Below the pieces are notes generated by a model. That model did not search any database. It saw nothing but the letters and a program-made list of their open reading frames with translations, and was not told the DNA's origin. Below are positions 84 to 13,986 of a DNA stretch of 32,000 nucleotides, in pieces. The translations under genes were made by a program, and so were the position numbers. The stretch is taken from assembly GCF_000179635.2 (NCBI RefSeq), contig NC_014833.1, positions 2,160,001-2,192,000 on the forward strand. Reading direction: 5' to 3'. Position 1 is the first letter of the stretch. Each line of letters starts with the position of its first letter. This DNA comes from Ruminococcus albus 7 = DSM 20455. Lineage in GTDB: Bacteria > Bacillota > Clostridia > Oscillospirales > Ruminococcaceae.

Positions 84-293
84 ATGTTGAAAACACCTGA
101 ACTGGCAATGCCGAGAACGAACAAGGTCACTACCGTCTGCAACGGAAAGCGTGAGGTCTGGACAGACTATGAGGAAGCAAAAGTATATTTCCTGGAACTT
201 ATGATGTCCACGGACGGTGAGGAGCACGAACGTGCGGAGTGCGTATACATTCAGCTCATGCACGTACTTGACGATTGCAGTGACGTGGACTGA
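84..293 (+). CDS. Small acidic hypothetical protein (69 aa, roughly 15 D/E vs 7 K/R)
   Basis: ORF with GGAGG about 9 nt upstream of the ATG at 84. It ends 15 nt before the SSB-like gene. No recognisable family. Confidence 0.5.
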   Translation: MLKTPELAMPRTNKVTTVCNGKREVWTDYEEAKVYFLELMMSTDGEEHERAECVYIQLMHVLDDCSDVD

Positions 294-308
294 AAGGAGT
301 AGTAAACT

Positions 309-638
309 ATGCTGAACAAAATAATGATGACAGGACGTATCACCACCGATCTGACCGTTGTAACCGAGGATAATTACAGCTACTGCAAATTTTGCATTGC
401 AGTAGACAAGCAAAAACAAAATAGCATTGATACCATTGAGACAGATACGTTCACCTGCATTGCCTTTGATGATAATGCTAAATCAGTAAGTTTTCTCTAC
501 TCAAAAGGTGGGATTATTACATTTGTTGGTTCGCTCAGGAAGGCACCTGACAAGTCAGTAGTTATCATCGTGGAGAAACTGCACTTCCAGAATAGGTTTG
601 CAGTCAAAGTAGACGTTGATTCGGGACAGCTTTTCTGA
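309..638 (+). CDS. ssb: Single-stranded DNA-binding (OB-fold) protein-like, short form
   Basis: The N-terminus MLNKIMMTGRITTDL matches the typical SSB start (MNKVxLIGRLTxDP). Length is about one OB fold. AAGGAG RBS at 294-299. Confidence 0.55.
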   Translation: MLNKIMMTGRITTDLTVVTEDNYSYCKFCIAVDKQKQNSIDTIETDTFTCIAFDDNAKSVSFLYSKGGIITFVGSLRKAPDKSVVIIVEKLHFQNRFAVKVDVDSGQLF

Positions 639-751: not shown

Positions 752-780
752 TTGACATACGGTATGTAAAATGGTATAAT
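752..780 (+). promoter_or_regulatory. Consensus sigma-A promoter for the MazG-like/helicase pair
   Basis: TTGACA (752-757), a 17-nt spacer, then TATAAT (775-780) with an extended -10 TG (TGgTATAAT). It sits 40 nt upstream of the ATG at 820. Confidence 0.65.
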
Positions 781-819
781 TTAAACAAATAATAGCTTTT
801 GCTTTGGGAGCGTGATAAA

Positions 820-1143
820 ATGAGAGCAGTACATAACAAACTCGTCCGTGACAAGATACCCGAGATAATCGAAAAAGCAAGCAAGACAGCCTACACACAT
901 ATCCTCTCCGACGAAGAATATATCTCCGAGCTAGACAAAAAGCTTGGCGAGGAATTTGCCGAGTATCAGGCTGACAAGAACATAGAAGAACTTGCCGATA
1001 TGTTGGAAGTTATGTATGCTATCGCCGAAGCAAGAGGATGGTCGGTATCTGAGCTTGAAGCTGTCCGTAAGTCTAAGGCTGAAAAGCGTGGTGGCTTCAA
1101 AAAGAAAATATACCTTGAGTATGTGGAGGAAGGAAATGAGTGA
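820..1143 (+). CDS. MazG-like all-alpha NTP pyrophosphohydrolase (PRA-PH-like / COG4997-type), 107 aa
   Basis: Hallmark N-terminus NKLVRDKIPEII, an acidic EExxE/EELADMLEV metal-binding helix pattern, and a C-terminal KxxKRGGF motif. GGGAG RBS at 806-810. The start was trimmed from the track TTG at 799 to the ATG at 820. Confidence 0.75.
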   Translation: MRAVHNKLVRDKIPEIIEKASKTAYTHILSDEEYISELDKKLGEEFAEYQADKNIEELADMLEVMYAIAEARGWSVSELEAVRKSKAEKRGGFKKKIYLEYVEEGNE

Positions 1144-3403
1144 AAGACTTGTAACGCCAAGTGGGAGCGCTCCCGAAAACCTGTTCATAGAACTTTTTTC
1201 GGACGCTTTCGGCGCTGAAAAAGCTGCGTTTCTTTATCCGCAGTACCACTTCACCGACATTTATCAGAATGACCGCTATGCTGATTTCTTCCTTGAAAAC
1301 GGCGGAAAGCGTATCGCTATTGAGATAGACGATGAAGCAAGTCATAACCCGTCGGTCGTGTCACGCAACAAGTTCTATGACGACCTGCTGAAACAAAACA
1401 GCATGATATTCAAAGGTTGGGACGTTTACCGCTGGGCAGTGCGTCAGTTGCAGGTACAGCCCGATACTGTCAAGGACGAACTGCGTATATTTCTCGGTTC
1501 GCACCCGCTGTTCCGTGAGATAGCAGATTATCTTCCCACACAGCGTTCCAAGACGATCAATGCCGAGAATTTGCAGCTGAAAGAGCATCAGCTTGCAGCT
1601 TTGAAGTCTCTTGAAGAAATGCGTGAACGTCATGAAACTATCGCTCTGTTATATCACGCAACAGGAACGGGAAAGACCGTTACCGCAGTCAGCGATGCAA
1701 AGCGGTTCGGCAAACGCACACTGTTCCTCGCACATACGATAGAGCTTGTAAATCAGGCTTATGAAACTTTCAATACTCTGTGGGATGGCGTTTATGTCGG
1801 TAAGTTCGGCGATGCTGTAAAGGAGAGAGATGCATATATCGTCTGCGGAAGTATCCAAAGTGTTGCACTCAATCTTGAAATGTTCCGTAAGGACGAGTTC
1901 GAGTATCTCATAATTGACGAGGCTCACCACGCTTCTGCCGATACATACCAGAAAGTGCTTGCGTATTTCAAGCCCAAGTTCACGCTGGGTCTTACAGCTA
2001 CTCCCGAACGTGCAGATGATAAGGACATCATAGAAATATTTAAGAACACCGCACACAAGCTGGATATACAGACAGCCGTTGAGATAGGCGAACTTGTGCC
2101 TGTTCGCTGTATCCGTATTCATACAAATATCGACCTGACAAAGGTGCGATTCAACAGTGTGCAGTACAATATCCGTGACCTCGAAAGCAAAATATTCGTT
2201 CCCGAGCGCAACACGCTTATAGTCGATACTTTCATGGAATACGTCAGCGACAAGCGAACGGTCATTTTCTGCGCAAGCGTAAAACACGCCGAGCAGATCG
2301 CGGCGATGATAAGAGAGCACGGAGTTGCCGCAGCCGCAGTCAGCGGAAGCATGAAGTCATCGGAACGCAAGGAGATGCTTGCAAAGTTCCAGAAGGGCGA
2401 GATCAAGGCGATGTGTGCCTGTGATCTGCTCAATGAGGGCTGGGACTGTCCCGAAACAGAAGTGCTGTTCATGGCTCGTCCCACTATGTCTAAAGTGCTG
2501 TACACTCAGCAGCTCGGGCGAGGTATGAGACTTGCAGACGGCAAGGATTTTCTAATGGTATTTGACTTCGTGGACAACGCAAGTCAGTACAATATGCCAT
2601 ATTCTCTGCACAGGTTATTCAAGCTGAAAAAGTACCGTCCCGGTCAGACAGTTCTCGGAAAAGACCGTGCTGCCGAAGAAGCATTATACGAACGAGGCGA
2701 AAAGCCGGAAGCGCTGATAGACTACCCCGTGAGCGTTACAGACTACGAAGCTGTTGATGTTTTCAACTGGCAGGAGGAAGCGGCTGGCATGATATCTCAG
2801 ATGGAGTTTATCCGCCGTGTTGATGTGCAGTCCGAAACAGTTGAAAGATATATCCGTGAGGGGAAGATCATCCCCAATCTGATAGTACCCATGAGCGAGC
2901 ATAAGCAGCTTAAATACTTCACCGAGGAAACGCTCGAAGCTGCCGCAAAAGCCAACGGATGGAAGCTTATAAACGACAGCAACCGCAAGGAGCTGTTTAT
3001 GGAAATGGTCGGGCAGATGGATATGAGCTATTCATATAAGCCTGTCCTGCTGAAAGCGATATTCGCCAATGCAGACAACAAAGGTCGCGTAAAGCTCGAT
3101 GATATCTCCGCATATTTCCGCTGTTTTTATGAGGAACGCAGAAGTTCGGGACTTGTAGTAGAGAAGCCAAACAGCATATTTGCAAAAGGAGGCTACACCG
3201 ACAAGGACGCTCAGCGGAATATCCTTTCCAATCCGTTCAAACGCTTTGAAGATATGCAGATGCTCAGGCACACAAAAACGCTCGGTATCATCGAGGTAGA
3301 ACCGACTGTGTGGAAAAATCTTACCGATGACGAGATCAGGCGTATACTGGATATTTGTGATGAGAAGCTGGAGAGGTATTATGGGAGGTTTGATAAGAAA
3401 TGA
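1136..3403 (+). CDS. Fusion protein (755 aa): N-terminal Vsr/DUF559-like endonuclease, SF2 (ResIII/DEAH) helicase, HTH, and an uncharacterised C-terminal domain
   Basis: N-terminus: DRYADFFLENGGKRIAIEIDDEASH ... GWDVYRW resembles the DUF559/Vsr pattern (D..(A)IE.DG..H ... GW.V.R). Helicase motifs: I ATGTGKT, II DEAHH, III LTATPER, VI QQLGRGMR. HTH-like segment: ISQMEFIRRVDVQSETVERYIREGKI. The C-terminal roughly 150 aa start at MSYSYKPVLLKAIF. The ATG at 1136 has a GGAGGA RBS at 1124-1129 and overlaps the MazG-like stop by 8 nt. Confidence 0.8.
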   Translation: MSERLVTPSGSAPENLFIELFSDAFGAEKAAFLYPQYHFTDIYQNDRYADFFLENGGKRIAIEIDDEASHNPSVVSRNKFYDDLLKQNSMIFKGWDVYRWAVRQLQVQPDTVKDELRIFLGSHPLFREIADYLPTQRSKTINAENLQLKEHQLAALKSLEEMRERHETIALLYHATGTGKTVTAVSDAKRFGKRTLFLAHTIELVNQAYETFNTLWDGVYVGKFGDAVKERDAYIVCGSIQSVALNLEMFRKDEFEYLIIDEAHHASADTYQKVLAYFKPKFTLGLTATPERADDKDIIEIFKNTAHKLDIQTAVEIGELVPVRCIRIHTNIDLTKVRFNSVQYNIRDLESKIFVPERNTLIVDTFMEYVSDKRTVIFCASVKHAEQIAAMIREHGVAAAAVSGSMKSSERKEMLAKFQKGEIKAMCACDLLNEGWDCPETEVLFMARPTMSKVLYTQQLGRGMRLADGKDFLMVFDFVDNASQYNMPYSLHRLFKLKKYRPGQTVLGKDRAAEEALYERGEKPEALIDYPVSVTDYEAVDVFNWQEEAAGMISQMEFIRRVDVQSETVERYIREGKIIPNLIVPMSEHKQLKYFTEETLEAAAKANGWKLINDSNRKELFMEMVGQMDMSYSYKPVLLKAIFANADNKGRVKLDDISAYFRCFYEERRSSGLVVEKPNSIFAKGGYTDKDAQRNILSNPFKRFEDMQMLRHTKTLGIIEVEPTVWKNLTDDEIRRILDICDEKLERYYGRFDKK

Positions 3404-3443
3404 GATTATCATTTGATAACTCTTTATCAGAACAATATTATAG

Positions 3444-3560
3444 AAAAAGCATATCAATAACAATAATGTGGAAGCAAAGATCAGACAGCAACTACAATTC
3501 TTACGAGATAAGGGATTTATTGAATTCTTAGGTAAGGGACAATATAGGAAAGCGTTATAA
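3444..3560 (+). pseudogene. Start-less remnant of a winged-helix-like C-terminus (..VEAKIRQQLQFLRDKGFIEFLGKGQYRKAL*)
   Basis: The open frame runs from the stop at 3441 to the TAA at 3558-3560, with no ATG and no RBS. The peptide resembles wHTH tails of the form LRDxGxIEFxGxGxY. Family not identified. Confidence 0.3.
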
Positions 3561-3591
3561 CTGAAGTATAACAACTATTTTACTAAGCATC

Positions 3592-3630
3592 AAAAAGGCT
3601 CTCACAGCCGAAAACTGTGAGAGCCTTTTT
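3592..3630. terminator. Bidirectional rho-independent terminator
   Basis: Perfect 16-bp stem AAAAAGGCTCTCACAG / CTGTGAGAGCCTTTTT with a 7-nt loop. A-run and T-run flanks allow function on both strands, and it lies between convergent genes. Confidence 0.75.
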
Positions 3631-3631
3631 G

Positions 3632-4099
3632 TTACAGACAGATAGTCATATAAGGCGGTATGCAAACAATATCCTCCTTGAAACAGAGGTTGCGTGGGTG
3701 TATCACATAGCACTCACCTATACGAGCCTTGTACTTCTCTTTAAAGCGTTTGAGCGACTCTATCGAATACTTCTTCCTCGACTTGACCTCTATCGGGAAC
3801 ATCTTGTATTTAAGCTTGCTATTGTTGGATATGAGGAAGTCTATTTCGATGTCGTTGCGGTGCTTCTCGGTGTTGTACTGCGTATAGAAATACAGCTTGT
3901 GACCGTTCACTGTCAGCATCTGAGCGATAGCGTTCTCATAGAGCATTCCCTCGTTCATGTTCAGCTTGTCACCGAGTATCTGCTTGTATACCTCATCTTC
4001 GAGCAGTTCGTTCTCGTCAAAGGCATGGCTGACAAGCAGTCCTGTATCGCCGAGGTAACACTTCACATACGCTCTGTTCTCTTTGATCGACAGTCCCAC
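3632..4099 (-). pseudogene. N-terminally truncated AAA-ATPase (DUF4143-type C-terminal domain only)
   Basis: KCYLGDTGLLVSHAF ... EIDFLI ... PIEVKS is the C-terminal DUF4143/restriction-fold half of ATPases that are normally about 400 aa. No Walker A/B region is present. The frame stays open upstream only to about 4192. Confidence 0.6.
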
Positions 4100-4106
4100 A
4101 TTAGGG

Positions 4107-4286
4107 TCATTGCACAGGAAGCATTCGCTGGAGATAATATCCAGTAAATATGCCGAGAAACAGCGGTCTGCCTTTCTTCCATCCGTAGTTAGTCACTGTG
4201 TTCAGTTCAAGGATATTGCCCAATCCCGGTGTAGACGCATTGATTACACAATATAAAACAAAATTACCTATCACATAAGCCGGCAT
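4107..4286 (-). pseudogene. N-terminal fragment of a LysE/EamB(YfiK)-family amino-acid exporter (about 50 codons)
   Basis: MPAYVIGNFVLYCVINASTPGLGNILELNTVTNYGWKKGRPLFLGIFTGY aligns by eye with the E. coli YfiK N-terminus (..TPGPNNILALSSATSHGFRQSTRVLAGMSLGF). AAGGAGG RBS and TGGTATAAT lie upstream. The frame breaks after about 51 residues, where it meets the ATPase remnant. Confidence 0.45.
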
Positions 4287-4404
4287 ATTTATGCCTCCTT
4301 CCGTAGTTTTATTATACCACGGAATGCTTTGCGATAGGTAGTACTTTCATACTGTGCGTTTGCATAGGTTCAGCCTAGAAGTTTTATTGCTTTTTACAAG
4401 TTTT

Positions 4405-5489: not shown

Positions 5490-5518
5490 TTGACAAATTG
5501 ACGAAAATTGTTTATAAT
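5490..5518 (+). promoter_or_regulatory. Consensus sigma-A promoter of the LacI-family gene
   Basis: TTGACA (5490-5495), a 17-nt spacer, then TATAAT (5513-5518). Confidence 0.6.
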
Positions 5519-5559
5519 AAAGTTAATATTAAGTTATAGAACCAAAAGGAGTGATAACA

Positions 5560-6561
5560 GTGAAAAAACCCGTTACATTGATCGATATCGCTAAAGCCTG
5601 CAACACCAGCAACGTTACTGTTTCAAAAGCCCTTGCTGATAAAAGTGGAGTTAGTGATGAACTCAGAGCAAAGATCAAACAAGTGGCAGAAGAAATGGGC
5701 TATGTTCCATCCAAAACCGTAACATCACGTAAGAAGAGCAATATCGGAGTTCTTATTCCCGAAAAGTATGTTGGGCTCAGCGGTTCTTTCTACTGGACAC
5801 TGTATAACAGCCTTGTCCAGAGATTGAAAAGAGAGAATCTATACTGTGTTATAGAAAATCTTGAGTACAAAGACGAAGAAAAACTGATACTGCCTAATAT
5901 TGTTACTGACCGAAAGATATCTGCGCTCATATCTCTCGGTGAGATATCTCATGTTTATGCACAGAAGCTTTCTGAAAATGTAGAACATCTGATCCTGCTT
6001 GATTATTATGTACCAGGTCTGAAGGTTGATTCGATCGTTACAAATGGCTATAATGGTGGATATAAGCTTGCAAATTATTTAATCAGCTTAGGGCACAGAC
6101 GAATAGGCTTTATCGGTTCCAAAAAAGCTACATCCAGTATATTTGACAGATATATGGGTTATATGAAAGCGCTTATAGAACATGATCTGGAAATACGTGA
6201 TGATTGGATAATAGATGACAGGGATAAGTATTCCGATCCGATCGATCTTGTATTCCCGAAGGATATGCCAACTGCTTTTGTATGCAACTGTGATGAAGTG
6301 GCATTCCAGACTATCAAACAGCTGAGGGAACATGGTTATTCTGTTCCTGATGATGTATCTGTTGTGGGATATGACAACTATCTTATCTCTGAAGTCAGTG
6401 ATCCCACTATTACAACTATCAGTATTGATGCGGAATATATGGCGGAGCTGACTGTAAACACTCTGATCCAGCGTCTTAATGATCCAAGTACCATCTATCG
6501 AATGCGTACGATTGAAGGTGACCTTGTTATCAAAAATTCAGTTCTCCCGCTGAACAGATAA
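5560..6561 (+). CDS. LacI-family transcriptional regulator
   Basis: N-terminal HTH: TLIDIAKACNTSNVTVSKALADKSGVSDELRAKIKQVAEEMGYVP. The C-terminal periplasmic-binding-like fold includes ..DVSVVGYDN.. GTG start at 5560, 8 nt after AAAGGAG. Confidence 0.9.
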   Translation: MKKPVTLIDIAKACNTSNVTVSKALADKSGVSDELRAKIKQVAEEMGYVPSKTVTSRKKSNIGVLIPEKYVGLSGSFYWTLYNSLVQRLKRENLYCVIENLEYKDEEKLILPNIVTDRKISALISLGEISHVYAQKLSENVEHLILLDYYVPGLKVDSIVTNGYNGGYKLANYLISLGHRRIGFIGSKKATSSIFDRYMGYMKALIEHDLEIRDDWIIDDRDKYSDPIDLVFPKDMPTAFVCNCDEVAFQTIKQLREHGYSVPDDVSVVGYDNYLISEVSDPTITTISIDAEYMAELTVNTLIQRLNDPSTIYRMRTIEGDLVIKNSVLPLNR

Positions 6562-10672: not shown

Positions 10673-12868
10673 CTATTTTAATTCACGAAACTGCGTAGGC
10701 GTCAAATTTGTGCGTTTTTTGAACTGACGCATAAAATGAGTTTCGTTATTATAGCCGCATTCAGCTGCTATCTCTGTTATACGAAGATCTGTATGAGTGA
10801 GCAGATATTCTGCTTTTTCTATACGCATAGTAATTAGATCTTCTGTGAAAGTTCTGCCGAACATCTCCCTGTAAAGACGCTGCATATGACTCTGGCTTAT
10901 ACCGATCTCTTTGGTAATATCAGTGACGTTCCAATCTTTCTGCGGTTGTCTGATAAGTTTATGCCTAAGCTGCTCCAAAGCCTGACGATAATCGGAGATA
11001 TCTGAAATATTATACATTATCATATTCATCATCTCACCCATTAGCTCTTTTATTTCCGAAATATGTTCACTAAGGTTTCTGCTAATGAACATATGCGATA
11101 TTATCAGGATACTGGGAGATCTCAGTTGTGTACCTAACAGGTCAGTCATTGAATTCTGTATATCTTCTTTAAGTGTTGGAAGAGGTTTATCTGAAAGGAC
11201 CATATATATCTGTTCACTGCCACGGCATATGATCATATTATCACTGACTGTACTGCGAAGTCCGTTTGCAAGAAGAAGGGAAGTATCATATCCTGCGGAT
11301 ATTTCTTCCGAACATCCGATTATAGTTATATAAGAATTACAATGAGCCTTTCTGCATCTTGCGATAAAATCAGGTAATGATTCTTCAAGGCCTCGTTGAT
11401 TAAGAAAACCTGTTACAGGGTCACGGACAGCAAGGTGTTCAAGGCGTTCACGCTGCCATCGCTGATAGTCCTTGTTCTGAAGAACACGAAGTCCGTTGGC
11501 TGCGGCATTACACCAGTTGACGTATGAATCATCAAGCTGTATATCGTCAGCATCTTCATAATAACAAGCAATATAACCCATTACCTGACTTCCAAGCGAA
11601 AGGGCAGTCAGAACTGCCAGTAAAGGTTCGTGTTTCTGAGAAAGGGCGGGAAGCATATCTTTTACATGAAATTTATACTGATCTTTTGCATTATTTCCTT
11701 GTCGTTTTGATAATGCAAGAAACATGATCTCAGAATAACCGCACTTACGAAAAACATCAGTATCTTCAAAATCTATTTCCCAATCTTCACAAAGACAAAT
11801 ATCTGCACCCTTTACACCATCCATGATATGCAGTGATTGATCAGCCTGCACTATCCAATCCTCCATAGTATCAACAGCAGAAAAACGCTCTATAAGGTCG
11901 GATATCAGAAATTGCTGCCTGTACATCAGATGATTGATCTTCTTTTCAAAACGCTTTTCAAGTGAAAGATCATTTTTCCAATTAACTTTCTGTGGCGAAC
12001 AACCGCAGCTGGTGCGAATGTTCACCTTTTGAGGGAGATCTGATCGTTCTAATGTCTGTACGCCCATCATGCATGATAAACGACATACAGCGTCTGCACC
12101 GAGCTGCATATCTCTGCCGGAGATAGTTGTTAGTCCGCGGAAAAGTGTATACCACCCCCCGTCATAGCCTGTAACTGCTATATCCTCAGGAACGTGTATA
12201 CCGCCGCTCTCCAATGTTTCGATCAGTGCAACAGCCATAACATCACTAGCACAAGCAATTGCATCCGGACGTTCTAATTCTCCGTCTACTATTTTCTGTG
12301 CTATCTGTGAAGGAACAGCCTTCCAGTAATCGCCATAAAAAATGCGATCTTCACGTACTGACAAACCTGATTCTTTCATAGCACTAAGATATCCGGCTGT
12401 GCGTTCAGATGAGGAATAACTGTCAGGCCTGCCTGTGATAAACCATATATCACGGTATCCATGAACATCTATCAGGTGCTTGATGATACAGTAAATGTAT
12501 TCACGCTGCCTGGAATGTATTACCGGAAGGGAACCGCAGTTGTCACCAAGAGCCAAACAGGGTATATCCAACTTGACAAGATGCTCGATTATCCGGCTTA
12601 TCAGCGATTGCTTTCTGAAACGCTCAGATGCGAATATTATTCCGTCCAGTTCAGCGTATTCAGGAATAGTATAAATATTTTCCAATGCACTTATGTATTC
12701 ATCTTGCTGCAATTCATTCTGGGAATTATAAATACCGGTTATGACAATGGTATCCATTCCAAGCTTTTTAGCCTGCATATTAACGCCTTTGATCAGTTCA
12801 TGATCTGAGGGATCAATTATCTCAGGCATTATCAGTGCTATGCGTTTTCTTCGCTCAGTCATATCCAT
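10673..12868 (-). CDS. Hybrid regulator: LacI/PBP-type sugar-binding domain, degenerate GGDEF-like domain, AraC-family HTH (731 aa)
   Basis: The N-terminal PBP-like fold (IALIMPEI.. , AVTGYDGG) has no N-terminal HTH. The middle region RDPVTGFLNQRGLEE ... RGSEQIYMVL follows the GGDEF layout, but the signature reads GSEQI. The C-terminus ITEIAAECGYNNETHFMRQFKKRTNLTPTQFR is a classic AraC HTH. Confidence 0.8.
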   Translation of the reverse strand: MDMTERRKRIALIMPEIIDPSDHELIKGVNMQAKKLGMDTIVITGIYNSQNELQQDEYISALENIYTIPEYAELDGIIFASERFRKQSLISRIIEHLVKLDIPCLALGDNCGSLPVIHSRQREYIYCIIKHLIDVHGYRDIWFITGRPDSYSSSERTAGYLSAMKESGLSVREDRIFYGDYWKAVPSQIAQKIVDGELERPDAIACASDVMAVALIETLESGGIHVPEDIAVTGYDGGWYTLFRGLTTISGRDMQLGADAVCRLSCMMGVQTLERSDLPQKVNIRTSCGCSPQKVNWKNDLSLEKRFEKKINHLMYRQQFLISDLIERFSAVDTMEDWIVQADQSLHIMDGVKGADICLCEDWEIDFEDTDVFRKCGYSEIMFLALSKRQGNNAKDQYKFHVKDMLPALSQKHEPLLAVLTALSLGSQVMGYIACYYEDADDIQLDDSYVNWCNAAANGLRVLQNKDYQRWQRERLEHLAVRDPVTGFLNQRGLEESLPDFIARCRKAHCNSYITIIGCSEEISAGYDTSLLLANGLRSTVSDNMIICRGSEQIYMVLSDKPLPTLKEDIQNSMTDLLGTQLRSPSILIISHMFISRNLSEHISEIKELMGEMMNMIMYNISDISDYRQALEQLRHKLIRQPQKDWNVTDITKEIGISQSHMQRLYREMFGRTFTEDLITMRIEKAEYLLTHTDLRITEIAAECGYNNETHFMRQFKKRTNLTPTQFRELK

Positions 12869-12901
12869 ATTATTCCCCCCCTGTATTACTGTCTTTTCCC
12901 T

Positions 12902-12930
12902 ATTATATATGATTTACAAGACTATGTCAA
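12902..12930 (-). promoter_or_regulatory. Consensus sigma-A promoter of the hybrid regulator gene
   Basis: On the minus strand: TTGACA (12930-12925), a 17-nt spacer, then TATAAT (12907-12902). Confidence 0.55.
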
Positions 12931-13221
12931 GTATAAAACAAGGGATCTATATTCAATTTATAGAAAAGAAAAAGCCGCACCCTCTCACAAGTGCAGCCCG
13001 CTGAATTACAGCAAAACAAGAACAAAGAAATGTATTATTATGAGTACACACGAACGGAAGACAACTCCGTTTATGCTGATGCATTTATTATATCACTTTT
13101 TATTTTGTTTGTGGGGAAATTTATTGTACATTTGATATAAATATATGAAATCAAAACAAAATACATTTCCTAATTCCGCGAATGTCACGAATACTTTGTA
13201 TGCAGTTTCCGTGTTTATTAG

Positions 13222-13986
13222 TTACTGTCTTTTGATACTGTAGATAAGCATCTGAAAATAATCTTTTCCTGCAGGGGTATCACTGTAACCAGCATAAGAA
13301 CCAATTACTTCCATACCTCGACTGCACATAATCTCATTGATCTCCTTTATTGTGTAAACTCTTGTAGGGTCACCCGCAGGTATCTCAGGATATTTCATCG
13401 TATCGCCATATGCTATATCGCAATTTCCAAAAAGCATTATACGTTTTTCTTTATCCCAATCAAATTCTGATAAAGATATGGTTTTATCACCTGCATCCCA
13501 CAATCTGACAGGAAAGTGGGCATCGGCATAATCACCGCATACAAGATCACAGATGTGATTACCACCGATCTTTAAAGCCTTTGAAACGATATCGAAGATC
13601 TTAAGGTTTTCTTCATCGTTCTCGAGATATCCGATAGCACCGTCGGCAAGATTTAGTACCAGATCAAACTCAGAATCAAAGTCTACATCTCTGATGTCAC
13701 AGCATAAGAATTTTGCATTATCAAGACCATTTCCGTGTGCATTTTTTACTGCATCATCAATGTAGATCTTTGTTATATCAATACCGACGACTTCATATCC
13801 GCGTCTTGCAAACTCTAGCGAATGTCTGCCATAGCCGCAGGCTAAGTCAAGTATTCTCTCGTTTCCATGCAGTCCGCACTGTTTGATGATATAGTCAACT
13901 TCACTTTCAGTGTTTTCTACCCAGGACATATTTTTTATATCAAGTCCCCAGTTATACTTGTACCAATCAGGTGATTTTGCTTTCAT
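13222..13986 (-). CDS. Class I SAM-dependent methyltransferase
   Basis: Motif I ILDLACGYGRHSLEFARRGYEVVGIDI and a post-I acidic residue. The start was moved to the ATG at 13986, which has GGAG 7 nt upstream. Confidence 0.8.
   Translation of the reverse strand: MKAKSPDWYKYNWGLDIKNMSWVENTESEVDYIIKQCGLHGNERILDLACGYGRHSLEFARRGYEVVGIDITKIYIDDAVKNAHGNGLDNAKFLCCDIRDVDFDSEFDLVLNLADGAIGYLENDEENLKIFDIVSKALKIGGNHICDLVCGDYADAHFPVRLWDAGDKTISLSEFDWDKEKRIMLFGNCDIAYGDTMKYPEIPAGDPTRVYTIKEINEIMCSRGMEVIGSYAGYSDTPAGKDYFQMLIYSIKRQ

Follow-up and report, generated by a model that had tools for sequence, protein, structure and literature searches.

The window analysed in this study comprises 32,000 nucleotides (nt) of the chromosome of Ruminococcus albus 7, to which all coordinates refer. 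It carries two overlapping genes, here termed gene 1 and gene 2, that are predicted to encode a small nucleoside triphosphate (NTP) pyrophosphohydrolase and a protein combining a nuclease domain with a helicase-type motor and a putative target-recognition module (Table 1). The latter protein is listed by NCBI simply as 'DEAD/DEAH box helicase'. A preliminary description of the locus regarded the pair as a candidate two-gene defence module. Judged from its genomic context, the gene pair probably functions in the defence against phages or other incoming DNA.

Table 1. Features of the gene pair and of its flanks in the window.
Feature	Position	Strand	Basis or score
Sigma-70-type promoter: TTGACA (752-757), 17-nt spacer, TGgTATAAT (772-780, extended -10)	752-780	+	sequence
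Shine-Dalgarno sequence GGGAG of gene 1, 9 nt before ATG	806-810	+	sequence
Gene 1, 107 amino acids (aa), WP_013498565.1, ATG at 820, stop ends at 1143	820-1143	+	sequence
Shine-Dalgarno sequence GGAGG of gene 2, within the end of gene 1	1125-1129	+	sequence
Gene 2, 755 aa, WP_028504190.1, ATG at 1136, stop ends at 3403	1136-3403	+	sequence
Predicted Vsr-like PD-(D/E)XK nuclease domain, REase_MTES_1575/DUF559 type (gene 2 residues 1-125)	1136-1510	+	profiles, fold search
Superfamily 2 (SF2) helicase/translocase core with Walker A GTGKT, DEAH, TAT and QQLGRGMR (residues 146-490)	1571-2605	+	
Predicted MerR/excisionase-type helix-turn-helix (HTH) (residues 552-607)	2789-2956	+	AlphaFold2, predicted local distance difference test score (pLDDT) ~80-90
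Predicted helical, winged-helix-like C-terminal domain with SYSYKPV motif (residues 625-755)	3008-3400	+	AlphaFold2, pLDDT >90 over most
Predicted bidirectional hairpin terminator, A5-GGCTCTCACAG ... CTGTGAGAGCC-T5	3592-3633	both	RNAfold -25.2 kcal/mol
Acidic 69-aa open reading frame (ORF)	84-293		phrog_34775, 4.8e-13
Single-stranded DNA-binding protein (SSB)-like ORF	309-638		Pfam SSB, 1.3e-9; phrog_44, 1.2e-6
Truncated DUF4143 ORF	3632-4099	minus	decayed fragment

The two reading frames overlap by 8 nt (1136-1143), as described before. The promoter in front of gene 1, already noted as a perfect TTGACA-17-TATAAT promoter with an extended -10, reached a score of 12/12 including the extended -10 TG in a promoter scan, and exact TTGACA-N17-TATAAT matches occur three times in the window versus none in 100 shuffled sequences. 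The same scan upstream of gene 1 detected 12/12 promoters 33-40 nt 5' of the gene in six related loci in which gene 1 is the first gene (L005, L009, L046, L047, L048 and L066; loci are numbered with the prefix L) and 11/12 promoters in three more (L014, L016 and L039). The second perfect promoter of the window (5490-5518, plus strand) lies upstream of a LacI-type regulator ORF (5551-6561), the third (12902-12930, minus strand) upstream of a minus-strand ORF ending at 12868. At the other end of the pair, a hairpin with a 16-bp stem, a 5' A-run and a 3' T-run, which was missed by a simple terminator scan, lies 190 nt past the stop of gene 2 and directly adjoins the stop codon of the DUF4143 fragment on the minus strand. 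According to its predicted structure it can end transcription from either direction and so close the two-gene unit.

All four parts previously assigned to the gene 2 protein, namely a Vsr/DUF559 nuclease, a complete SF2 helicase, an HTH and a C-terminal domain, were recovered, marked by the motifs IAIEIDD (residue 60), GWDVYRW (94), ATGTGKT (175), DEAHH (261), TATPER (287), QQLGRGMR (458), MISQMEF (552) and MSYSYKP (630). The N-terminal domain matched the Pfam family REase_MTES_1575 in all of 11 diverse members (best E-value 6.6e-8) and DUF559 in four of them, each time below the gathering score; the domain of the window protein reached 20.6 bits against a cut-off of 38.2. Most of the listed proteins of a second, largely Planctomycete clade of the family have precomputed matches to PF18741 or PF04480. 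The MTES_1575 family was defined by its authors as a novel Vsr-family restriction endonuclease (REase; PMC3710099). Pfam gave no match to a phospholipase-D (PLD, HKD-type) nuclease in the N-terminus, and a profile of the domain found nothing among the PDB sequences, so that the structural match came from the fold search alone. Run on the AlphaFold2 model of the domain (pLDDT 80), Foldseek ranked I-Bth0305I first in the PDB (3r3p_B, E 2.6e-3, probability 1.0), a Vsr-like homing endonuclease, in agreement with the nuclease assignment made earlier for the N-terminus; next came restriction-like endonuclease domains of R2 elements, the endonuclease-like protein NGO0050 (3hrl), Bax1 and AbaSI. From Clostridia through to Planctomycetes, every alignment made shows D50, E63, D65, H70 and D82 without substitution, and K79 is fixed or almost so; the nuclease therefore appears to be active.

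The motor of the gene 2 protein possesses all helicase motifs and matches the Pfam families ResIII (3.8e-35) and Helicase_C (7.7e-17). Its best match among the PDB sequences is SauUSI (7clg_A, E 1.7e-51, residues 152-491) with RadD in second place (4.2e-33), and its best PADLOC model is mREase_IV (2.6e-53), which covers the motor stretch only. RadD is also the best NCBIfam match (E 8.4e-43), though at 146 bits against a family cut-off of 720. The phage SF2 'DNA helicases' of phrog_16 match the motor as well (2e-89). A role of gene 2 as a phage replication helicase was rejected, since the 'DNA helicases' of Streptococcus prophages share the motor core only: their tblastn alignment runs to residue 689, but BLASTP produced a gappy and meaningless extension past residue ~490.

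The segment behind the motor is predicted to consist of an HTH followed by the C-terminal domain. For the HTH, weak MerR_1 matches were obtained in the relatives P0373 and P0269, on this same segment, and the structural matches in BFVD include MerR-like HTH proteins. The C-terminal domain, which the preliminary description had been unable to place, could not be placed here either. Pfam gave no match in the window protein and no consistent match when 30 diverse domains were scanned singly, a profile of these 30 domains found no PDB sequence with E <0.06, and the Foldseek matches of the model in the PDB were weak winged-helix similarities to FOXN1, JetB/MukE, Cdc6/ORC and MarR, all with E of at least 0.04. 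The SRA-like DUF3427 was not found in the window protein and matched one of the 30 diverse domains (E 0.0097). The possibility that the domain is a known modification reader (SRA, PUA, DpnI-like or sulphur-binding domain) was dropped, since no such reader is among the 50 Foldseek PDB matches listed.

The HTH and C-terminal module is shared with proteins of other architectures. A search with residues 545-755 gave 696 matches among 1.84 billion representatives (clustered at 50%). Among them are six GmrSD (DUF262 + DUF1524) representatives that end in the module, one of which also has a Macro domain, with 29-48% identity to the corresponding part of the gene 2 protein. The module was furthermore detected on a DUF6339 protein, a HAD hydrolase, a sigma-70-like protein and some helicases with an additional S24 peptidase, while on one viral contig in BFVD it terminates both an 'AAA ATPase' (E 4.5e-23) and a DUF262 protein (2.7e-19). 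The carriers of the shuffled module are P0251, P0262, P0279, P0286, P0305 and P0360, the loci L168-L207 and the BFVD entries A0A8S5PWP8 and A0A8S5PWA5. A homologue search with residues 491-755 returned truncated copies of the gene 2 family and no new architectures. Based on its position and its occurrence on these proteins, we infer that the module is a putative target-recognition module.

In several contigs GmrSD genes without the module are located directly upstream of the gene pair, which suggests that the GmrSD-module fusions arose through deletion between neighbouring genes. The idea that the MazG-like gene is tied to the C-terminal module rather than to the helicase was rejected because the module-bearing GmrSD fusions mostly lack a MazG-like neighbour. 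Behind one such fusion, in L183 (5001-10651), come a 117-aa ORF, then a MazG-like gene and then a gene for a 724-aa protein in which Macro, NADAR-like and ADP-ribosylglycohydrolase-like parts were recognised by eye; no helicase gene is present. This arrangement hints at a link to the ADP-ribosylation of DNA or protein.

The gene 1 protein contains the motifs NKLVRDKIPEII, EELADMLEV and KRGGF. Its match to the Pfam MazG-like family (E 1.5e-3) scores 19.1 bits against a gathering cut-off of 27. Among 20 diverse relatives from related loci (39-76% identity), however, five matched MazG-like (best 7.8e-7), three PRA-PH (best 7.6e-6) and one dUTPase_2. A search of the PDB sequences with the single protein gave noise only. 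The profile of the family had as its three top matches in the PDB the PRA-PH domain of HisIE, a dimeric dUTPase-family protein and a nucleotide pyrophosphohydrolase (E 0.13-0.26), all of which belong to the all-alpha NTP pyrophosphohydrolase superfamily. Residues E44, E45, E48, E57, D60 and E63 are invariant in the 20 sequences, with an acidic-cluster spacing that is shorter than in the textbook ExxE ... ExxD motif. The NCBI name of the protein is 'nucleoside triphosphate pyrophosphohydrolase', and a near-identical protein of its 90% cluster is named 'house-cleaning noncanonical NTP pyrophosphatase (MazG superfamily)' in IMG. On the basis of the Pfam matches of the relatives, the PDB profile and the invariant acidic residues we accept the prediction, made earlier for this 107-aa protein, that gene 1 belongs to the all-alpha MazG/PRA-PH NTP pyrophosphohydrolase superfamily. 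One 90%-identity cluster mixes 106-aa MazG-like and 127-aa NUDIX proteins, encoded by adjacent genes of Pseudoflavonifractor, which may be a clustering artefact.

Gene 1 accompanies gene 2 in most loci. In 75 loci with upstream DNA, gene 1 lies upstream of gene 2 in 55, either abutting it (38 loci, gaps of -14 to +36 nt) or separated by 100-550 nt (17 loci); it is found downstream in two (L062 and L077) and is absent from 18. In the 17 loci small genes are inserted between the two, among them genes for DUF6998 proteins (L019, L023, L031 and L060), which bear a weak likeness to methyl-directed Type II enzymes in PADLOC (6.7e-5), for 155-aa Mrr_cat_2-like PD-(D/E)XK proteins (L022, L024 and L025) and for a 121-aa protein (L032 and L056). 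In four insert-bearing loci gene 1 is itself preceded by genes of JetD-like or NUDIX type, or by both. The pairwise identities of the gene 1 and gene 2 proteins co-vary over 54 loci (Mantel r 0.78, a value reached in none of 2000 permutations).

Partners were counted in 65 species-level loci with both flanks, as genes on the same strand within 1.6 kb of gene 2. A MazG-like gene is present in 47 of these loci, a NUDIX gene in nine and a HIT gene in five; at least one of the three occurs in 52 (80%), and 13 loci have no small hydrolase at all. The expected co-occurrence of the two genes was thus found. The notion of a two-gene module stands in so far as the genes are linked in most loci, but it has to be qualified because gene 1 is lacking in about a quarter of them and gene 2 can stand alone. 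A MutT-like NUDIX protein (PADLOC PDC-S07, 1.2e-48) is encoded beside the pair in 10 loci, and in L044 a NUDIX gene is located directly upstream of gene 2 with gene 1 missing. In distant clades a HIT hydrolase gene is situated at the 3' end of gene 2, either in overlap with it or behind it (L062, L070, L080, L212 and L213). The recurrence of three unrelated hydrolase folds at the same operon position argues that selection may act on a nucleotide-hydrolase activity and not on one particular protein.

Gene 2 is embedded in defence islands, its neighbours being overwhelmingly predicted defence genes and its flanks varying from locus to locus. A SauUSI-like PLD-ResIII-DUF3427 gene is found nearby in 10 loci, and other neighbours encode Wadjet JetC/JetD, a YhcG nuclease, a Schlafen-type helicase and GmrSD. 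A search with GmrSD proteins yielded at least five metagenome contigs in which GmrSD, gene 1 and gene 2 stand together as an array of three genes. The neighbourhood of L005 comprises genes for RloB/AAA_21, DndB and NERD proteins together with serine recombinases and IS21/Mu-type transposase genes, and that of L001 a TerY-P-like triad. No conserved methyltransferase was detected among the neighbour clusters present in at least four of 82 loci; a Dam-like cluster, recognised by eye, occurs in three. In the Planctomycete clade, genes for DUF4007 (L212 and L213) and a PAPS-reductase-like protein (L215) are located nearby, and in L212 (4171-10080) a HIT hydrolase gene overlaps the end of gene 2, with a DndB-like gene coming after it. 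These neighbours point to putative DNA-backbone-modification loci.

The gene 2 family is large, patchy and horizontally spread. A total of 7640 homologues was found at E <=1e-10, the best 120 of which are 750-770 aa long or fragments and share at least 77% identity with the window protein, and a scan of one genome per species revealed 80 loci with 51-96% identity. Full-length matches occur in Oscillospiraceae, Ruminococcus, Clostridium, Faecalibacterium, Christensenellaceae and Planctomycetes, and furthermore in Flexilinea (Chloroflexi), Brachyspira and Sphaerochaetaceae (Spirochaetes), a Bacteroides bin and a metagenome-assembled genome of Proteobacteria. The second large clade (45% identity) is mostly of Planctomycete and environmental origin. 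Because the DNA homology between the window and L001 is limited to the two genes and that between the window and L005 ends exactly at the stop of gene 2, the pair seems to behave as a mobile cassette. Directly beyond this stop, L005 carries a dGTPase defence gene (12312-13565; PADLOC 1.9e-54), whereas the window contains decayed pieces.

Members of the gene 2 family are nearly absent from collections of mobile elements. Two were found among the 2.9 million viral contigs of IMG/VR, no full-length member on the 72,556 plasmids of PLSDB, and a single distant copy in 50,697 phage records, on an unannotated faecal 'phage' contig. Close relatives of gene 1 were not found among viral contigs, and its protein has no match in the PHROG families.

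The immediate flanks of the pair in the window correspond to the earlier account of an SSB and a small acidic protein on the left and decayed fragments on the right. Both left-hand ORFs have phage-family matches and recur in L005, where the nucleotide identity is 78%, for which reason the left flank looks like the remnant of a prophage or mobile element with the gene pair as putative cargo at its edge. The right flank (3400-4290) consists of a 43-aa ORF overlapping the stop of gene 2, a winged-HTH-like tail 'QLQFLRDKGFIEFLGKGQYRKAL' in another frame and the truncated DUF4143 ORF.

Among the characterised enzymes the gene 2 protein is suggested by analogy to work most like SauUSI, yet it lacks two of the three architectural hallmarks of that enzyme, namely a PLD nuclease and DUF3427 as the reader. 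SauUSI is the closest solved relative of its motor, and both are single polypeptides with an N-terminal nuclease, an SF2 translocase and a C-terminal DNA-recognition module, in that order, and without a partner methyltransferase. In contrast to the phospholipase-D-type nuclease and the terminal DUF3427/SRA-like domain of SauUSI, the gene 2 protein has a Vsr-like PD-(D/E)XK nuclease and ends in the HTH and winged-helix-like domain; it is also shorter (755 versus 953 aa) and its gene usually has a nucleotide-hydrolase partner.

The comparison with Hhe drawn in the preliminary description holds in part. Hhe, reportedly described by Gao and co-workers in 2020 as a helicase with a Vsr endonuclease, presumably has the MTES_1575 architecture. 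It shares with the gene 2 protein the domain types (helicase, Vsr-family REase and winged helix) and the form of a single large effector in defence contexts. MTES_1575-type proteins consist of a superfamily 1 (SF1) helicase, a Vsr REase and two winged HTH domains (PMC3710099). They differ from the gene 2 protein, with its SF2 motor and N-terminal nuclease, in the SF1 helicase, in the C-terminal position of the nuclease and winged HTH (DUF3320) and in their much larger size. The domain content is thus shared; the HheA profile, however, is not among the best 25 of the 30 PADLOC families matching gene 2, and the nuclease domain has no PADLOC match.

GmrSD/BrxU enzymes resemble gene 2 in that a subset of GmrSD proteins ends in the same HTH and C-terminal module and in the location of GmrSD genes beside the pair. 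They differ in combining a ParB-like NTPase with an HNH-type nuclease, where the gene 2 protein has its Vsr-like nuclease and SF2 motor, and the module-fused forms usually stand without a MazG-like neighbour. Gene 1 shows weak but concordant similarity to MazG, DCTPP1/RS21-C6, HisE/PRA-PH and dimeric dUTPases and has invariant acidic residues, but it is short, possesses an N-terminal KLVRDxIPEII segment and is found in defence islands, coupled to a nuclease-helicase gene instead of metabolic genes. With the dGTPase, dCTP deaminase and PDC-S07 defences it has in common that all are small nucleotide-metabolising enzymes in defence islands. Those nucleotide-depletion defences presumably work on their own, through depletion of canonical deoxynucleoside triphosphates (dNTPs), whereas gene 1 has another fold and is operon-coupled to a DNA-targeting effector.

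The catalogue searched for known defence systems was PADLOC-DB 2.0 (2023). Its models gave no match at E-values up to 1 for gene 1, for the nuclease domain alone or for the C-terminal module alone, which agrees with the earlier statement that this pairing was not recognised as a named system, and no description of the pair was found in the literature. MazG is listed among the predicted yet unvalidated defence domains in the DefensePredictor paper (PMC13092281). Modification-dependent enzymes have been described as modular, with a sensor and a nuclease, and as methylase-less, and a winged-helix sensor is known among them (PMC12191111). We rate the theme of an accessory hydrolase as new here and ATP-dependent, methylase-less restriction as belonging to an already known kind.

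Taken together, the favoured reading, held at about even odds, is that the pair represents an unnamed, methylase-less, ATP-dependent restriction-type enzyme accompanied by an optional house-cleaning nucleotide hydrolase. In this scenario the HTH and C-terminal module would recognise some property of foreign DNA, with a modified base or backbone as the most plausible candidate, the SF2 motor would translocate along the DNA and the Vsr-like domain would cut it. That the targeting by gene 2 is modification-dependent, as in Type IV enzymes, is suggested by analogy and is held with somewhat less than even confidence. Gene 1 would assist without being indispensable, by hydrolysing modified, non-canonical dNTPs. 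In this way phages with modified bases might be starved of precursors; alternatively, modified nucleotides recycled from degraded phage DNA might be kept out of the host chromosome and self-restriction thus be avoided. A preference for 5-modified dCTP is shown by the MazG-like DCTPP1 of humans and by the NUDIX protein NudG of E. coli, so that such a chemistry is plausible. The sanitation of modified dNTPs as the actual role of the helper is nevertheless a tentative suggestion that we consider rather unlikely.

The broader interpretation, according to which the family is a widespread group of modification-sensing restriction enzymes with a new winged-helix reader and with interchangeable MazG-like, NUDIX and HIT partners that destroy phage-made or recycled modified nucleotides, is more speculative still and is considered unlikely. 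The same low confidence applies to its functional corollary, that DNA restriction may be coupled to the sanitation of the precursor pool, which would starve modified-base phages and prevent self-restriction.

Several points weigh against the proposed restriction-type enzyme and its helper. The gene 1 protein of the window lies below the Pfam gathering threshold, and the NCBIfam family closest to the motor is that of a repair helicase, RadD. The C-terminal domain has no detectable kinship to known modification readers, and since winged helices bind many things, modification dependence remains an analogy. Gene 1 is frequent yet dispensable: it is absent from 18 of the 75 loci and from all three members of the Planctomycete clade examined, and it occurs without gene 2 in L183, and is hence no requirement. 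Shared descent could account for part of the Mantel correlation. MazG-like, NUDIX and HIT families differ in their chemistry; HIT enzymes act on phosphoramidates or dinucleotides and not on dNTPs. As the novelty was assessed against the PADLOC release of 2023, a newer catalogue may already name the gene 2 family.

The best surviving alternative, although it too appears improbable, is that two independent single-gene defence or accessory functions travel together, gene 2 being self-sufficient and the MazG-like protein acting alone on nucleotide pools in the manner of PDC-S07. This would account for the ~20-25% of loci, and the Planctomycete-clade loci examined, in which gene 2 occurs alone, and for L183, where gene 1 stands beside the GmrSD fusion and the Macro-containing protein. 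The NUDIX neighbour is, moreover, listed by PADLOC as a single-gene candidate, and unrelated systems are tightly packed in defence islands. Independent functions are, however, difficult to reconcile with the overlapping frames and the location of the ribosome-binding site of gene 2 inside gene 1, with the strong consensus promoter just upstream of gene 1 in several independent loci, and with a linkage that comprises 38 same-strand abutting loci and is kept in rearranged orders, whether gene 1 lies downstream or genes are inserted. The co-variation of both sequences and the recurrence of three unrelated hydrolase folds in the same position likewise speak against them.

A regulated abortive-infection or toxin-antitoxin-like module, in which gene 2 would be self-toxic and the hydrolase would destroy a nucleotide signal or alarmone, or deplete nucleotides once triggered, seems clearly improbable. 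The order of a small upstream gene with overlapping frames does resemble that of antitoxin and toxin genes, MazG, NUDIX and HIT proteins as families all cleave nucleotide-derived small molecules, and in some variants the C-terminal domain is followed by a LexA-like S24 peptidase, which would suggest a signal-controlled activation. Yet neither a nucleotide cyclase nor another signal-generating enzyme was found among the recurrent neighbour clusters, and gene 2 is tolerated alone, as the 13 of 65 loci without any hydrolase indicate. One of the weak helicase matches in PADLOC is a helicase toxin of PsyrT type (3e-10), but this match covers the generic helicase C-terminal domain only.

The pair might also serve a mobile element, either by processing the element's DNA in replication or transfer or as a counter-defence removing host-made nucleotides, as is thought for phage MazG, but we regard this as very improbable. 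The position of the pair behind the SSB-like and 69-aa genes with their phrog_44 and phrog_34775 matches in the window and in L005, the recombinase and transposase genes of L005, the two IMG/VR contigs and the similarity of the phrog_16 helicases to the motor would all fit such a role. On the other hand, the family is nearly missing from the viral, plasmid and phage collections given above, the phage helicases have the motor core in common but neither the nuclease nor the C-terminal module, no PHROG family corresponds to gene 1, and most loci have defence neighbours instead of replication or transfer genes.

Least probable of all is a function in housekeeping genome maintenance, with gene 2 as a RadD/XPB-like repair helicase-nuclease and gene 1 as an NTP pyrophosphatase removing damaged dNTPs, since the RadD match in NCBIfam, the presence of RadD and XPB among the PDB matches, the nature of Vsr itself as a repair nuclease, the classic role of MutT-type NUDIX and MazG enzymes as pool sanitisers and the XPB-Bax1 nuclease complexes among the structural matches of the nuclease domain are opposed by a RadD score far under the family cut-off, by a patchy family found in unrelated phyla at 51-80% identity, by variable flanks dominated by defence genes and by homology blocks that stop at the gene borders. 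Taking the defence neighbours, the near absence from mobile-element collections and the motor-only similarity of phage helicases together, neither housekeeping nor phage replication is a likely function. Either of them had been named in the preliminary description as a finding that would speak against a defence module, and neither holds for this patchy family.

If the interpretation of the pair as a restriction-type enzyme with an optional nucleotide hydrolase is correct, its C-terminal reader could become a reagent for the mapping of DNA modifications. It would also mean that one new DNA-recognition domain is common to SF2-motor and GmrSD enzymes, two Type IV chassis that are unrelated to each other, and the pair would be the first concrete instance in which a part of MazG-type pyrophosphohydrolases in bacterial immunity could be tested. 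The occurrence of three hydrolase folds at one operon position would then point to a coupling of the restriction of modified DNA to the control of the modified-nucleotide pool. The gene 2 family itself would represent a large new family of ATP-dependent, methylase-less restriction enzymes, which has thousands of members and is common in the Clostridia of gut and rumen.

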